A DNA stretch of 64,000 nucleotides from a phage: sequence record PX104380.1; one strand, written 5' to 3'. The notes beneath the pieces are model-generated. The model did no database searches. It was not told the origin of the DNA and saw only the letters and a list, made by a program, of their open reading frames with translations. The translations under genes and the position numbers were made by a program. Position 1 is the stretch's first letter; each line of letters begins with the position of its first letter. Positions 6,992-58,700 of this stretch are shown here, piece by piece.

Positions 6992-7416
6992 TGATTCTAA
7001 TCCCTGAAACTCATGAATTAGTTCTCGAGAATGTCGAAGCACTTATTCCTGAAGCACAGGGTCGCTTTGACGAGTTGTCTTCTGCTTTAAATAAAGACGA
7101 TATAAATAAAATTATCGAGAATATGCTTGATGATGAAACTGATTTAGCGGTTGCATTAGCTTCTATTAATGAAAATATGCCGTTAAATGAATTCATCGTT
7201 AAACATGTTTCTGCCCGTGGTGAAATTACTCGCACTAAAGATCGCAAAACACGCGAACGTAATGCATTTCAAACTACCGGGTTGTCTAAAGCAAAACGTA
7301 GACAAATTGCTCGTAAAGCTACCAAAACGAAGATTGCCAATCCAGCAGGTCAATCTCGTGCTCAGCGTAAGCGTAAAAAAGCTCTTAAACGCCGTAAAGC
7401 ATTAGGATTAAGCTAA
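6991..7416 (+). CDS. 68: prohead core protein gp68
   Basis: 141 aa; TAATG overlap with gene 67; basic C-terminus. Confidence 0.85.
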
Positions 7417-26760: not shown

Positions 26761-26791
26761 TTTGTGTTCCTCATGTTATGTCAGTAAAACT

Positions 26792-26821
26792 ACTATAACA
26801 CAATACGAGGGACTTGTAAAC
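26792..26821 (-). promoter_or_regulatory. T4-type early promoter (GTTTAC-N18-TATAGT, extended -10 TG)
   Basis: -35 GTTTAC fused to stop TAG of the upstream alt paralog; part of a 53-bp element 51/53 identical to 42044-42096. Confidence 0.55.
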
Positions 26822-34953: not shown

Positions 34954-35319
34954 TTAAATATCAAATTCGTTAAGAACTACATCAAAGATTGCTTCAAGAT
35001 GCTCAGGTTTAGCTCTATTACTCAGAATATGACGAATCCAAGTTTTAACAAGAAGCTTGCGATTAACGCCATTCCAGCAAGGATGAGCCCCTAAATCACG
35101 TTGACGAAAATCATCATCTAATGCGATTTTAAAAGAAGAACCTTCTTTCGTGATTGAAACTGTAATACCGTTTTCAAATCGCATATACACATAGTTAGGA
35201 GTCATATACTGTTCAATTTCGCATACTGATCCATTTTGATGTTTCCAAAGGCAAATAGTATCAATAGAACCTGCAATACCATTAGAAACATATTTACGTT
35301 CAAAGTTGATGTAGTTCAT
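34954..35319 (-). CDS. hypothetical protein, 121 aa
   Basis: ATG with SD GGAGA; early promoter upstream. Confidence 0.55.
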   Translation of the reverse strand: MNYINFERKYVSNGIAGSIDTICLWKHQNGSVCEIEQYMTPNYVYMRFENGITVSITKEGSSFKIALDDDFRQRDLGAHPCWNGVNRKLLVKTWIRHILSNRAKPEHLEAIFDVVLNEFDI

Positions 35320-35355
35320 TTTTGTTCTCCGAGATGTTTAATTGCGGTACAGGTA

Positions 35356-35385
35356 TATAATATCATATCCTGTACCAAAGTAAAC
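35356..35385 (-). promoter_or_regulatory. T4-type early promoter (GTTTAC-N18-TATTAT) with -10 inside the loop of an 8-bp inverted repeat
   Basis: -35 begins 2 nt after the upstream stop; inverted repeat GGTACAGG / CCTGTACC at 35346-35376. Confidence 0.5.
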
Positions 35386-35387
35386 AA

Positions 35388-35720
35388 TTATTTTACTACT
35401 TTCCAGTGCTGCATGTCAAGTTTACCGACTTTTTTCATCTTCTCAATTAAGCGTTCGGCACGTTGGCGAGCTGTAACATAATACCATTCACCTAATTCAT
35501 TTTGTTCAATTTTTCCAACGATTACTGTATTCAATTCATAAATCCAACCAGTAAAGAAATTATGAACTTGAATTGTAAAGGTGAAATCTGTTCCCATACC
35601 TTCTGTTGTTTCTACTTCAATAATATCACCTTCAACTGCCATTAAGAACCACATAGTTTCATCATATTTACCATTGAAGCATTTAGTTTTAACTGCAGCG
35701 TTCAGATTAATCGTTTTCAT
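35388..35720 (-). CDS. hypothetical protein, 110 aa
   Basis: ATG with SD AAAGGAG. Confidence 0.55.
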   Translation of the reverse strand: MKTINLNAAVKTKCFNGKYDETMWFLMAVEGDIIEVETTEGMGTDFTFTIQVHNFFTGWIYELNTVIVGKIEQNELGEWYYVTARQRAERLIEKMKKVGKLDMQHWKVVK

Positions 35721-35747
35721 TTTATTCTCCTTTGTTTGTGTAAGATA

Positions 35748-35777
35748 ATACTATCACAAAGGAACCATACTGTAAAC
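35748..35777 (-). promoter_or_regulatory. T4-type early promoter (GTTTAC-N17/18-TAGTAT)
   Basis: GTTTAC and TGTGATAGTAT upstream of the 110-aa ORF. Confidence 0.45.
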
Positions 35778-38166: not shown

Positions 38167-38501
38167 TTCATAATCACCAGATAAGCAGATTTAGCAGTTT
38201 CAACACGATAAATTTCGTGACGAAGTTTAGTTATACTTTTAATAACAGAACTAATTATATTCTGCCCATCTTTAAAGCGGTTTTTCTTGTCAATAAAAAT
38301 TGCGCCAACCATCTTTTTGTGAAGCTCAACTGGATACTTCGTCACAATAATAGCATCATATACAGAAGGATGAATACTATTTACTAGAGTGTCATTCATT
38401 AAAGTTATTCTAATGAACTGTGCTGTTTCAGAGTCAAGCGCTCTATGATCGCCAGTGTCATTTTCAAGACAATTATCAATTATATCAGTTAAATTCATCA
38501 T
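38163..38501 (-). CDS. cd.1: hypothetical protein (cd.1 position)
   Basis: 112 aa; ATGA overlaps on both sides. Confidence 0.55.
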   Translation of the reverse strand: MMNLTDIIDNCLENDTGDHRALDSETAQFIRITLMNDTLVNSIHPSVYDAIIVTKYPVELHKKMVGAIFIDKKNRFKDGQNIISSVIKSITKLRHEIYRVETAKSAYLVIMK

Positions 38502-38737
38502 AGTACGCCATACACCCTTTGTGCTTCAACTAATCCATCAAAATCTAATTTAAGATGCGATATTTGATCGCCATCGCCTGGATTCACAATTACTAATACT
38601 GAACGAGGAGTTTCGGTAATAACACGAACCGATGTTTCAGGAAATCGTTCAGAAACCTTATTTACCAATTCCTGCGCAAATAGCTTAACTTTTTCTTGGA
38701 ATTCTTTAACAGTAATCGGTTTTTCACTTAGCAGCAT
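38498..38737 (-). CDS. cd.2: hypothetical protein (cd.2 position)
   Basis: 79 aa; SD GAGGA; early promoter upstream. Confidence 0.55.
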   Translation of the reverse strand: MLLSEKPITVKEFQEKVKLFAQELVNKVSERFPETSVRVITETPRSVLVIVNPGDGDQISHLKLDFDGLVEAQRVYGVL

Positions 38738-38766
38738 TTTGTTTTCCTCATTTGTTTGGTAGAGCT

Positions 38767-38796
38767 ATAATATCACAACTCTACCGTAAAGTAAAC
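38767..38796 (-). promoter_or_regulatory. T4-type early promoter (GTTTAC-N18-TATTAT) with -10 inside the loop of a 7-bp inverted repeat
   Basis: inverted repeat GGTAGAG / CTCTACC at 38758-38785; -35 begins 2 nt after cd.3 stop. Confidence 0.5.
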
Positions 38797-38798
38797 TA

Positions 38799-39074
38799 TT
38801 AAATTGCTTTGAATTCTGCTGTCTGCGATTCAAAACGAATATCGCCTTTGATGACTAGCTCAGCATCAAGACCGAATACAACAATGATATGCGCGGAACC
38901 TGGATACAGCGTAATGGCAATAGAATCCACCTGGTCTGGAAGCAAAGTGTTCAATACATGAGTCACTTGAGCATGAATTCGAAGCTCGGCTGCGTTATCA
39001 AGCTTTTCAAACATATTATTAGCGATAATTTGACTAAACACTACTTCTACGATTTTAGAATAAGTCGGAAACAT
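38799..39074 (-). CDS. cd.3: hypothetical protein (cd.3 position)
   Basis: 91 aa; SD GAGGT. Confidence 0.55.
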   Translation of the reverse strand: MFPTYSKIVEVVFSQIIANNMFEKLDNAAELRIHAQVTHVLNTLLPDQVDSIAITLYPGSAHIIVVFGLDAELVIKGDIRFESQTAEFKAI

Positions 39075-42038: not shown

Positions 42039-42066
42039 AAAGTCCTCATGTTATGTCAGTAAGACT

Positions 42067-42096
42067 ACTATAACACAACACGAGGGACTTGTAAAC
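42067..42096 (-). promoter_or_regulatory. T4-type early promoter (GTTTAC-N18-TATAGT) for alc
   Basis: part of the 53-bp element 42044-42096, 51/53 identical to 26769-26821. Confidence 0.55.
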
Positions 42097-50776: not shown

Positions 50777-51019
50777 TCAAATAGACTTTTTCACAATTTT
50801 CCAATCAGCTTTAAACTGATCGACGTCAGAGTGATAAATCCAAAATCCTGCGCTTTCACCGTCTTCATAAAGCGGACACCCATCACATTCATCTTCCCAT
50901 CCCATACCACGTAAAAGATGTTCAGCTTTTTCAACAAGTTCAGAATCTTTACCGATGATATTAAAATACCATTTACCTCTAACTTCTGAATCTTTGATGC
51001 TTTGGCGTTGTAATCTCAT
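50777..51019 (-). CDS. hypothetical protein, 80 aa
   Basis: ATG 51019 with SD GAGGAG; ORF track start is an upstream GTG inside the promoter. Confidence 0.5.
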   Translation of the reverse strand: MRLQRQSIKDSEVRGKWYFNIIGKDSELVEKAEHLLRGMGWEDECDGCPLYEDGESAGFWIYHSDVDQFKADWKIVKKSI

Positions 51020-51048
51020 TTTATTCTCCTCATGTAGTTGATAGGGTA

Positions 51049-51078
51049 ATAGTATCACACTACTACCCTACCGTAAAC
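51049..51078 (-). promoter_or_regulatory. T4-type early promoter (GTTTAC-N18-TACTAT)
   Basis: -35 fused to stop TAG of the upstream gene; -10 flanked by short inverted repeat GGGTA / TACCC. Confidence 0.5.
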
Positions 51079-51443
51079 TACTTTTTGAAAGTTTTTCGCA
51101 AAAGTTCAATGATTTCATCTACATTGTTTTCATCTACAATGCAGTGAATTTTTGTTACGCCAGAAACCGGGTCTTTGACTTCATCTTTTTCAGAAGTCGG
51201 TTCTTTATACTCACGAAAACAATGAAATTCGTCTTCACAAACGTTAAAGTAAAAATGCTTTCCATTTGCGCATTCAATGTGTTTTATTACTCTAAATCCA
51301 TCAACAAAGAAAGCTTCTTTAACTTCAAACCATCCGCCATTTTCTTGAATAATTTTAACTATTGCTGAATTAGAACGTGGGCAATAATTAATAAATGTAT
51401 CAATAAGTCTTGGAACAAGTTCATACTTTTTACCGATATACAT
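51078..51443 (-). CDS. hypothetical protein, 121 aa
   Basis: SD GAGGA. Confidence 0.55.
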   Translation of the reverse strand: MYIGKKYELVPRLIDTFINYCPRSNSAIVKIIQENGGWFEVKEAFFVDGFRVIKHIECANGKHFYFNVCEDEFHCFREYKEPTSEKDEVKDPVSGVTKIHCIVDENNVDEIIELLRKTFKK

Positions 51444-55721: not shown

Positions 55722-58700
55722 ATGGCCGAGATTAAAAGAAAGTTCAGAGCAGAAGACGGTCTGGACGCAGGTGGTGATAAAATAATCAACGTAGCTTTAG
55801 CTGATCGTACCGTAGGAACTGACGGTGTTAACGTTGATTACTTAATTCAAGAAAACACAGTTCAGCAATATGATCCAACTCGTGGATATTTAAAAGATTT
55901 TGTAATCATTTATGATAACCGCTTTTGGGCTGCTATAAATGATATTCCAAAACCAGCAGGAGCTTTTAATAGCGTACGATGGAGAGCGTTACGTACTGAT
56001 GCTAACTGGATTACGGTTTCATCTGGTTCATATCAATTAAAATCTGGTGAAGCTATTTCGGTTAACACCGCAGCTGGTAATGATATTACATTTACTTTAC
56101 CATCTACCCCAATTGATGGTGATACTATCGTTCTCCAAGATATTGGAGGAAAACCAGGAGTTAACCAAGTTTTAATTGTAGCTCCGGTGCAAAGTATTGT
56201 AAACTTCAGAGGTCAACAAGTACGTTCAGTACTAATGACTCATCCAAAATCGCAGATAGTTTTAATTTTTAGTAATCGTCTGTGGCAAATGTATGTTGCT
56301 GATTATAGTAGAGAAGCTGTAGTTGTAACGCCTGCGAGTCTCTATCAGGCGCAATCAAACGATTTTATCGTACGTAGATTTACTTCTGCTTCAGCAATTA
56401 ATATTAAACTTCCTAGATTTGCTAATCATGGGGATATTATTAATTTTGTTGATTTAGATAAATTAAATCCGTTATATCATACTATCGTTACTACATACGA
56501 TGAAACGACTTCAGTACAAGAAGTTGGAACTCATTCCATTGAAGGCCGTACAACGATTGACGGTTTCTTAATGTTTGATGATAATGAGAAATTGTGGAGA
56601 TTATTTGACGGGGATAGTAAAGCACGTTTACGCATTATAATAACTAATTCTAATATTCGTCCAAACGAAGAAGTTATGGTATTTGGTGCGAATAACGGAA
56701 CAACTCAAACAATTGAGCTTCAGCTTCCAACTAATATTTCTGTTGGTGATACTGTTAAAATTTCCATGAATTACATGAGAAAAGGACAAACAGTTAAAAT
56801 CAAAGCTGCCGGTGAAGATAAAATTGCTTCTTCAGTTCAATTGCTGCAATTCCCAAAACGTTCAGAATATCCGCCTGAAACTAAATGGGTGACTGTCCAA
56901 GAATTAGTTTTTAACGGTGAAACTAATTATGTTCCAGTTTTACAGCTTGCTTATATAGAAGATTCTGATGGAAAATACTGGGTTGTACAGCAAAACGTTC
57001 CAACTGTAGAAAGAGTAGATTCTTTAAATGATTCTACTAGAGCAAGATTAGGCGTAATTGCTTTAGCTACACAGGCTCAAGCTAATGTCGATTTAGAAAA
57101 TTCTCCACAAAAAGAATTAGCAATTACTCCAGAAACATTAGCTAACCGTACTGCTACAGAAACTCGTAGAGGTATCGCAAGAATAGCAACTACTGCTCAA
57201 GTGAATCAGAACACCACATTCTCTTTTGCAGATGATATTATCATCACTCCTAAAAAGCTGAATGAAAGAACTGCTACAGAAACTCGTAGAGGCGTCGCTG
57301 AAATTGCTACACAGCAAGAAACTAATGCAGGAACCGATGATACTACAATCATCACTCCTAAAAAACTTCAAGCTCGCCAAGGTTCTGAATCATTATCTGG
57401 TATTGTAACTTTTGTATCTACTGCAGGTGCTACTCCAGCTTCTAGCCGTGAATTAAATGGTACGAATGTTTATAATAAAAACACTAATAACTTGGTTGTT
57501 TCGCCTAAAGCTTTGGATCAGTATAAAGCTACTCCAACGCAACAAGGTGCAGTAATTTTAGCAGTTGAAAGTGAAGTAATTGCTGGACAAAGCCAAGAAG
57601 GATGGGCAAATGCTGTTGTAACGCCAGAAACGTTACATAAAAAGACATCAACTGATGGAAGAATAGGATTAATTGAAATTGCTACGCAAAATGAAGTTAA
57701 TACAGGAACTGATTATACTCGTGCAGTCACTCCTAAAACTTTAAATGACCGTAGAGCAACTGAAAGTTTAAGTGGTATAGCTGAAATTGCTACACAAGTT
57801 GAATTCGACGCAGGCGTCGACGATACTCGTATCTCTACACCATTAAAAATTAAAACCAGATTTAATAGTACTGATCGTACTTCTGTTGTTGCTCTATCTG
57901 GATTAGTTGAATCAGGAACTCTCTGGGACCATTATACCCTTAATATTCTTGAAGCAAATGAGACGCAACGTGGTACACTTCGTGTAGCTACACAGGTCGA
58001 AGCTGCTGCAGGAAAATTAGATAATGTTTTAATAACTCCTAAAAAGCTTTTAGGTACTAAATCTACTGAAGCACAAGAAGGTGTTATTAAAGTTGCAACT
58101 CAGTCTGAAACTGTGACTGGAACGTCAGCAAATACTGCTGTATCTCCAAAAAATTTAAAATGGATTGTGCAGAGTGAACCTACCTGGGCAGCTACTACTG
58201 CAGTAAGAGGCTTTGTTAAAACTTCATCTGGTTCAATTACATTTGTCGGTAATGATACAGTCGGTTCTACCCAAGATTTAGAACTGTATGAGAAAAATAG
58301 TTATGCAGTATCACCATATGAATTAAACCGTGTATTAGCAAATTATTTGCCATTAAAAGCAAAAGCTGCAGATAGTAATTTATTGGATGGTCTAGATTCA
58401 TCTCAGTTCATTCGTAGGGATATTGCGCAGACGGTTAATGGTTCACTAACCTTAACTCAACAAACGAATCTGAGTGCCCCTCTTGTATCATCTAGTACTG
58501 CTACGTTTGGTGGTTCAGTTACAGCAAATAGTGTACTAACAATTTCTAATACTGGAACAGCAACTCGATTGATTTTTGAGAAAGGACCTCAAACTGGAAC
58601 AAACCCAGCCCAAACGATGACTGTTAGAGTGTGGGGAAATCAATTTAGTGGGGAATCAGATACAACACGTTCTACCGTATTTGAAGTTAGTGATGAAACA

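Follow-up and report, generated by a model that had tools for sequence, protein, structure and literature searches.

The closest described counterparts of the element considered here are the early-promoter stem-loops (PeSLs) that Arbiol et al. 2010 defined in phages phi1 and RB49, cassettes that begin, within an AT-rich stretch, where the upstream gene ends in its stop codon (PMC2839356). Their stem-loops lie mostly between the -35 and -10 elements or overlap the -10, and a phi1 stem-loop placed between a promoter and lacZ lowered expression about as much as rrnB T1 did. These elements also recombine, excising or inserting open reading frames (ORFs), and mini-circles have been reported (PMC2839356). 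Their authors note, citing Repoila 1994, that early promoters of T4 at the internal-protein (IP) loci of T-even phages carry comparable stem-loops that are weaker and AT-rich (PMC2839356), and Comeau et al. 2014 extended PeSLs to T4/PST and nt-1/KVP40 (PMC4122927). Here we examine three early promoters in a 64,000-nucleotide stretch of phage DNA (sequence record PX104380.1; this whole stretch is called the window below) in which the -10 element is enclosed by an inverted repeat. They are named for the first base of the -35 element and all lie on the minus strand: site 1 at 35385, site 2 at 38796, and site 3 at 51078. The bracketing of the -10 is real and non-random. From sequence statistics and comparison with relatives, we consider it probable that these sites are PeSL-type composites, in which an early promoter is combined with an intercistronic RNA hairpin that has a post-transcriptional role on read-through mRNA and is not an intrinsic terminator.

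The sites match the published PeSL design and are not a new kind of element. Like the PeSLs of phi1/RB49, they start at a stop codon, are AT-rich, carry a strong early promoter with a stem-loop at the -35/-10 region, and continue into a Shine-Dalgarno sequence (SD) and start codon; both also occur in many copies (8-9 in the window and ~41 in T4) and are tied to gene indels. However, the phi1/RB49 elements have near-consensus TTGACA/TATAAT promoters and polyG/polyC stems, whereas those described here have GTTTAC, AT-richer and varied stems, and no U-run. We regard the present cassettes as analogues rather than sequence homologues, which is what the authors say of the T-even IP elements as well (PMC2839356). 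The likeness to the T4/PST PeSLs comprises the same phage group, the consensus TTTACW-N17-TAYWAT, and stem-loops with nearby indels (PMC4122927), and the three loci may possibly be listed already in a figure of that article. The idea of a combined terminator and promoter, put forward in the original prediction from which this analysis started, is likewise already published as an interpretation of PeSLs (PMC2839356, PMC4122927). In themselves the three sites matter little, because PeSL-type cassettes have already been proposed to insulate transcription units and mediate gene shuffling. The reviews PMC2988021 and PMC3014915 make no mention of inverted repeats around the early-promoter -10, and a literature search for T4 transcription start site or term-seq data found none.

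Three further systems invite comparison. In the T4 genes e, soc, 49, and I-TevI, a promoter lies inside an RNA helix, with the result that only promoter-proximal transcripts are translated (PMC3014915). As at our sites, the promoter falls within the 5' strand or loop of the helix, and the long RNA folds while RNA from the internal promoter does not. In those genes the internal promoter is a late (or middle) one and the SD or AUG is covered by the 3' strand, whereas the three sites have an early promoter and a free SD; the sister cassettes 35777, 42096, and 26821 of the window resemble e/soc/49/I-TevI in that their SD is covered. Intrinsic terminators share with the sites a stable hairpin directly after a stop codon, but here the loops are long, the stems are AT-rich, and there is no U-tract. 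The repetitive extragenic palindromic (REP) elements of E. coli operons are intercistronic hairpins without a U-tract that could block 3' exonucleases and so protect the upstream message. REP elements are not promoters, but a hairpin without a U-tract between cistrons is common to both.

Promoters and inverted repeats at the three sites

The window comes from a Tequatrovirus (T4-like). The genes around the sites are all on the minus strand, and a ~6-kb stretch around them, spanning cd, pseT, gene 31, and rIII, is 96-97% identical to Tequatrovirus genomes. By alignment with T4, the three sites are minus-strand early promoters, which at the sequence level bears out their earlier designation as such. 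The T4-type early promoter pattern GTTTAC-N17/18-TGnTAnnAT is confined to the coding strand in the window, with GTTTAC at N17/18 spacing in 9/19 cases on the minus strand and 0 on the plus strand, and the nine coding-strand promoters of the form GTTTAC-N17/18-TAnnnT make up our strict window set. Each of the three sites has TGn before the -10, an extended -10 that is typical of T4 early promoters (PMC2988021). The upstream stop codon had been placed within 0-2 nt of GTTTAC, and the gaps are 2, 2, and -1 nt at sites 1, 2, and 3, respectively. The gap is -1 nt at 26821 too, where, as at 51078, the overlap noted earlier as TAG-TTTAC is present, and 3 nt at 42096. In T4, an upstream stop codon lies ≤2 nt from the -35 at 15/41 early promoters and ≤10 nt from it at 21/41.

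Site 1 is the promoter between 30.8 and 30.7 of T4 (T4 129918). Its minus strand reads TAA-TT-GTTTAC-TTT-GGTACAGG-ATATGA-TATTAT-ATA-CCTGTACC, with the upstream TAA at 35388-35390, 2 nt from the -35 GTTTAC at 35380-35385. The 5' arm GGTACAGG (35369-35376) lies within the promoter spacer, the -10 TATTAT (35357-35362), preceded by TGa, falls in the hairpin loop or upper stem, and the 3' arm CCTGTACC (35346-35353) covers the expected transcription start region. Reading the minus strand thus confirmed the 8-bp inverted repeat predicted around the -10 at 35346-35385; the spacing from GTTTAC to TATTAT is N17 and not the N18 given with it. The repeat is perfect, with 8 bp and a 15-nt loop, and the minimum free energy (MFE) helix runs from 35377 to 35345. 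The sense RNA folds at -19.5 kcal/mol (z = -6.0 against dinucleotide shuffles, the null used for all three sites) and the antisense at -18.3. Downstream lie the SD GGAG (35327-35330) and the ATG of the 30.7 homologue (35317-35319). The -35 region of this site (TGTTTA) can also pair with TAAACA farther downstream.

At site 2, the promoter between cd.3 and cd.2 in T4, the same layout holds as predicted (38758-38796, GGTAGAG/CTCTACC, 7 bp): TAA-TA-GTTTAC-TTTAC-GGTAGAG-TTGTGA-TATTAT-AG-CTCTACC. The upstream TAA (38799-38801) is followed by the -35 GTTTAC (38791-38796), the 5' arm GGTAGAG (38779-38785), the -10 TATTAT (38767-38772), and the 3' arm CTCTACC (38758-38764), which together enclose a 14-nt loop; the sense fold is -16.3 kcal/mol (z = -3.6). 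The SD GAGG is at 38746-38749 and the ATG of the cd.2 homologue at 38735-38737. The T4 record names the orthologous early promoter Pe133295, and the number in this name, which we take from T4 naming convention to be the start coordinate, falls 7 nt past the -10, at base 5 of the 3' arm.

Site 3 corresponds to the promoter downstream of frd.2 in T4 (T4 146143) and reads TA(G)TTTAC-GG-TAGGGTA-GTAGTGTGA-TACTAT-TACCCTA, the first G of its -35 GTTTAC (51073-51078) being the final base of the upstream stop TAG (51078-51080). The 5' arm TAGGGTA (51064-51070), the -10 TACTAT (51049-51054), and the 3' arm TACCCTA (51042-51048) are followed by the SD GAGGAG (51026-51031) and an ATG (51017-51019). The layout is the one proposed for 51049-51078, but the repeat had been described as a weaker, 5-bp GGGTA/TACCC, whereas its stem is 7 bp in Watson-Crick pairs and is extended by RNAfold to ~15 bp with G·U pairs (MFE helix 51072-51040). 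The sense RNA folds at -25.6 kcal/mol (z = -5.4), a value that belongs to the stretch 51030-51085, in which pairing of GTAGTT with ATCAACTAC adds an outer helix around the whole promoter. The motif ATCAACTAC is conserved past many T4 early promoters, and the GTAGTT with which it can pair consists of the stop TAG and the start of the -35.

The downstream SD and start codon close the 3' end of the cassette at all three sites, and the expected +1, 7 nt past the -10, lies within or ahead of the 3' arm in each. Where the start site is inside the 3' arm, the promoter's own transcript lacks the 5' arm, and the hairpin can therefore form only on read-through RNA. Stable hairpins on read-through transcripts just upstream of the next SD had been predicted, and the folds obtained, at -16 to -26 kcal/mol, agree with this.

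Bracketing of the -10 element in the window and in T4

Perfect repeats with a stem of at least 7 bp and a loop of 8-25 nt are common in this AT-rich DNA. The window has 156 of them, roughly one every 410 bp, compared with ~92-96 ± 9 after shuffling (mononucleotide, Markov-1, or in 100-nt blocks). Only a small share of this general excess of inverted repeats comes from the promoter hairpins, and a lone repeat is unremarkable because such repeats are so common. This would favor the view that the three repeats arose by chance. To measure bracketing itself, we recorded for each promoter the longest perfect stem that joins the spacer (5' arm) to the 25 nt past the -10 (3' arm). Stems of 7-8 bp were present in 4/9 promoters of the strict window set, each at a shuffle p of 0.008-0.03 (site 1, p = 0.008; 35777, p = 0.011; site 3, p = 0.021; site 2, p = 0.029), and a fifth promoter has 6 bp. 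The shuffled controls named as a check in the original prediction thus split: they show a single repeat to be common, but enclosure of the -10 to be rare.

We repeated the measurement on the T4 genome, assembled from five pieces, with 37 listed early promoters for stems and 41 for folding. Many of these share the layout, often with stems far stronger than those in the window, such as AGTTGACAAGATT/AATCTTGTCAACT at 57990 (13 bp), TCCTAGAATTGTGA/TCACAATTCTAGGA at 65799 (14 bp), and TGATGAGGTA/TACCTCATCA at 73939 (10 bp). The summed best bracketing stem was 225 with Watson-Crick pairs alone, compared with 160 ± 5.5 after shuffling (z = 11.8), and 14/37 promoters individually reached p ≤ 0.05. With the positional enrichment in the window and a z of ~12 across T4, together with fold z-scores of -3.6 to -6.0 at the three sites and the conservation and covariation in other genera described below, we give chance a practically negligible probability; it is the positional enrichment and the fold statistics, in the window and in T4, that refute it.

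The T4 promoters also show a difference between the strands. When G·U pairs were allowed, the summed stem rose to 301, compared with 213 ± 7.1 in shuffles (z = 12.5), whereas allowing A·C pairs, the antisense equivalent, gave a z of only 8.5. RNA from the spacer to the AUG folded at a mean of -12.8 kcal/mol in the sense direction, compared with -6.9 for shuffles (Wilcoxon 6e-6) and -9.7 for the antisense (Wilcoxon 1e-4), and in the window the sense fold of sites 2 and 3 is better than the antisense by 7-8 kcal/mol. Hairpin strength further depends on the upstream gene. The mean fold z was -3.8 among the 21 T4 promoters with a stop codon ≤10 nt from the -35, of which 14 reached z ≤ -3, and -1.2 among the remaining 20, of which 4 did (Mann-Whitney p = 0.004). 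This dependence on an abutting stop codon is more readily explained by a role in read-through RNA than by one intrinsic to the promoter.

Probable selection on the hairpin as read-through RNA

For a view of the arms in relatives, we collected loci around the 30.7 gene from IMG/VR, including JS98 (Dhakavirus) and vB_EcoM_VR20. In three lineages of the Tevenvirinae (Tequatrovirus, JS98 of Dhakavirus, and VR20-like phages), GGTACAGG/CCTGTACC is retained at site 1, the sole arm change being a C to T at one locus (L029) that yields a G·U pair, while the loop and above all the linker to the SD have many substitutions and indels. At site 2, GGTAGAG/CTCTACC becomes GGTAGGACT/AGTCCTACC in JS98-like phages and GGTGGAG/CTCTACC, with a G·U pair, at another locus (L033). 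Three pairs of this family have changed in both arms, and pairing holds in 92% of cells, compared with 22-53% when the 3' partners are slid. The family of the T4 promoter at 7215 replaces GGGACC/GGTCCC with GGGAGC/GCTCC(C/T), and variants of the 26821/42096 cassette swap C-G, U·G, G·U, and A-U pairs. Every one-sided change seen in relatives results in a G·U pair on the sense strand. The compensatory and G·U changes, with their sense-strand bias, argue for selection on RNA pairing.

This bears on the alternative that the repeats act as DNA, either through cruciform or hairpin extrusion that aids or impedes promoter melting, or by serving a dimeric protein, for instance a putative early shut-off factor, as its operator. 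Several of the repeats are perfect palindromes in which both strands fold about equally well (-19.5 and -18.3 kcal/mol at site 1, and likewise T4 65799 and 73572), the loop of site 2 was once reported in inverted orientation in T4, implying that the repeat can act as DNA, and the mechanism by which T4 early promoters are shut off is incompletely understood (PMC3014915). However, the arms differ among promoters (GGTACAGG, GGTAGAG, TAGGGTA, and others), so that there is no common protein site, and the stems are lengthened by G·U but not by A·C pairs. The greater stability of sense over antisense RNA (p = 1e-4), the one-sided changes that give sense-strand G·U pairs, and the dependence on an abutting upstream gene, which is unexpected for a purely promoter-intrinsic role, also stand against an action as DNA. 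Stems of 7-8 bp with loops of 14-15 nt are, moreover, poor cruciform formers. We consider a DNA-level element very unlikely.

A further possibility is that the cassettes, as ~60-100-bp modules, are kept only for gene shuffling in the manner of PeSL mini-circles, and that the stem-loop has no function as RNA. The gene that directly follows the site 2 cassette varies among close relatives, with an ORF indel exactly at the SD/ATG border, the cassettes at 42096 and 26821 are near-identical, and excision and mini-circles are documented in phi1/RB49 (PMC2839356). Recombination of this kind needs similarity between cassettes but not complementarity within them, whereas the arms vary and yet remain self-complementary in each case, with compensatory changes. 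Recombination as the sole function is therefore improbable in our view, while a recombination role alongside a function in RNA is compatible with the explanation we prefer.

Another reading is that of the PeSL authors and of the original prediction, in which a terminator or attenuator is fused to a promoter, and the hairpin stops or attenuates incoming transcription, leaving each gene mostly to its own promoter. The hairpins have the required stability (-16 to -26 kcal/mol) and are exactly intercistronic, and the phi1 stem-loop acted on lacZ about as rrnB T1 does (PMC2839356). Nevertheless, the hairpins are followed by A-rich tails (GCAATTAA, AAACAAAT, and TCAACTAC), with no T-run past any of the three, and they have long loops, which either span 14-15 nt or have only weak A-U and G·U pairs to close them. 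A terminator scan found the GC-rich stem, short loop, and U-tract of an intrinsic terminator at none of the three sites, while it called canonical terminators nearby on the minus strand at 35827-35806 and 51839-51821, each with a GC stem, a 3-4-nt loop or tetraloop, and a T-run. These calls indicate that the phage uses ordinary terminators where it needs them. In addition, the stem tested in phi1 is polyG/polyC, whereas the stems here are AT-rich. Intrinsic termination at the three sites was rejected on the negative scan; the terminator function ascribed to them earlier is not supported, and the broader terminator or attenuator reading is, we think, unlikely.

We also considered whether the hairpins generally hide the SD. 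In the MFE folds of all three sites, the SD lies beyond the hairpin and takes part in no pair. In longer read-through constructs of the T4 orthologues, site 1 had an unpaired-SD probability of 0.70 and site 3 one of 0.83, but that of site 2 was 0.08, owing to pairing outside the hairpin. A second class is marked by specific pairing of the SD with the spacer (per-promoter p ≤ 0.05 versus spacer shuffles); it comprises 10/41 T4 promoters and includes the window cassettes 35777, 42096, and 26821. Across T4, mean SD accessibility compared with the spacer-shuffled null gave z = -1.7, which is not significant. With only 10/41 T4 promoters and none of the three sites in this class, sequestration of the SD was rejected as a general function.

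We therefore return to the composite of promoter and read-through hairpin, for which we infer a post-transcriptional role. Enrichment at the -10, the sense-strand preference of the pairing and its use of G·U, the compensatory changes, the dependence on an abutting stop codon, and the existence of two classes are of more use than the three initial examples; together they argue that the stem-loops are selected as structures of read-through RNA and are not intrinsic terminators. As DNA, the element would be a strong sigma-70 early promoter of T4 type (GTTTAC, N17-18, TGn-TAnnAT) placed right after the upstream stop codon, and, as RNA, its spacer is complementary to the first ~10 transcribed bases. 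On read-through RNA, the ~45-nt promoter-derived segment would then fold with the -10 in the loop. By looping out the promoter sequence, the hairpin might keep the untranslated gap from stop codon to SD short and structured, and the upstream cistron may gain a 3' hairpin that resists exonucleases after cleavage at the next SD, for example by RegB at GGAG. In the SD-covering cassettes (35777, 42096, 26821, and the T4 class above), the same design would pair the spacer with the SD, from which it follows that read-through and promoter-proximal transcripts should differ in translatability.

Several results weigh against this explanation. The phi1 stem-loop did cut downstream lacZ strongly, and its authors read this as termination, albeit with GC-rich stems and in another phage (PMC2839356). 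Site 1 has conservation only, without covariation, and the covariation samples are small, with 7-8 distinct sequences (8 for site 2) and few independent events. The MFE helix encloses the -10 in 30/41 T4 promoters compared with 31.8 ± 2.4 in the shuffle null, and the SD is paired in 17/41 compared with 20.0 ± 3.4; since both counts equal their nulls, we dropped them as evidence, and significance is limited to stem length and stability. Roughly one-quarter to one-third of the early promoters in T4 lack a notable hairpin. Lastly, the SD-free hairpins at T4 129918, 65799, and 73572, as well as site 1, are near-perfect palindromes with about equal antisense folds, and because they fold on both strands, a DNA-level role keeps some of its probability.

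If the hairpins are indeed selected as RNA, they could belong to a genome-wide, start-site-dependent riboregulatory layer of T-even early expression, with around half of the early promoters in sense-strand helices. We put this forward tentatively and think it rather doubtful. Were it true, immediate-early (promoter-proximal) and delayed-early or middle (read-through) transcripts of one gene would differ systematically. In the SD-covering class, the SD of read-through RNA would be hidden unless a ribosome terminating 7-13 nt upstream melts the base of the helix, which would amount to enforced translational coupling or to restriction to immediate-early expression. In the SD-free class, to which the three sites belong, the gap would be short and resistant to Rho and RNases, and would serve as a 3' stabilizer after RegB cuts the next SD. 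The paradigm of genes e, soc, and 49 would thereby be extended from a few late genes to the early program. Confirmation that the stem-loops are selected as RNA on read-through transcripts would clarify how T4 separates immediate-early from read-through expression of the same genes, and would mean that where 'intergenic promoters' are deleted or swapped in the engineering of T4-like therapeutic phages, RNA elements are lost with them.

Sister cassettes, nearby terminators, and the cd.2 locus

The window holds further examples of the layout that were absent from the original prediction. The cassette at 35727-35777 (minus strand; -35 at 35772-35777, -10 at 35748-35753) has an 8-9 bp helix, TCCTTTGT/ACAAAGGA (35764-35727), the 3' arm of which covers the SD. 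The cassette at 42040-42096 (minus strand; -35 at 42091-42096, -10 at 42067-42072), orthologous to T4 136336, has a long helix containing G·U pairs (42090-42040) that joins the spacer to the SD and AUG region. At 26766-26821, also on the minus strand, the -35 (26816-26821) overlaps a TAG stop codon, and the helix 26813-26766 pairs the spacer with the SD. Although 15 kb apart, 26766-26821 and 42040-42096 are near-identical ~58-bp cassettes with the consensus GTTTACAAGTCCCTCGTrTTGTGTTATAGTAGTyTTACTGACATAACATGAGGA, and the two copies are potential substrates for direct-repeat recombination. A search of Rfam gave no family match anywhere in the window.

The canonical terminators at 35827-35806 and 51839-51821 directly precede the early promoters at 35777 and 51788, for which their T-runs also serve as the AT-rich upstream region. 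Such pairs of terminator followed by promoter (35827/35777 and 51839/51788) represent the PeSL form with the stem-loop just upstream. A figure legend for PST places stem-loops 'just upstream' of the promoter, and this wording fits these two pairs and not the layout with the -10 in the loop (PMC4122927). The window also contains GTTTAC-N18-TACAAT at 56204 on the minus strand (T4 151291), antisense within the region of long-tail-fiber gene 34 and without a downstream SD/ATG.

Site 2 has a history of its own in T4. The GenBank/RefSeq record carries a misc_feature on 133300-133313 described as 'inverted complement of previously reported sequence; corrects the early promoter Pe133295', and this segment corresponds to 38765-38778 of the window, the exact 14-nt loop between the site 2 arms. 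A search for the loop in inverted form gave no exact match in IMG/VR, and no inverted allele occurred in 118 full-length phage records; the best phage record covering all of a 118-nt query was 94.9% identical and is the normal allele. An invertible -10 loop as a natural polymorphism or switch was rejected, as no inverted allele, in which the -10 spacing would be destroyed, was found in these two sets. The inverted report in T4 was probably an old cloning or sequencing artifact.

The first gene behind the site 2 cassette differs among phages. In the window (38735-38800) and in T4, the cassette directly drives cd.2 (MLLSEK...), while in close relatives (loci L017, L019-L021, L026, L027, and L029) it drives an extra ORF (MSEWFE...), with a promoterless cd.2 next. 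The junction of this one-gene indel lies between the SD of the cassette and the ATG, site 2 being the sole locus checked for indels. A protein-based search for cd.2 relatives gave 5 loci, 4 of them without the promoter. In the T4 reference (133270 region, locus L002), the promoter-proximal ATG of cd.2 opens a 17-codon ORF (MLLSEKPITVKGIPRKS*), and the annotated start of cd.2 is 9-10 nt downstream of it. The matching ATG in the window opens a 79-codon ORF (38498-38737), and this difference between T4 and the window suggests a frameshift or an error in the reference.

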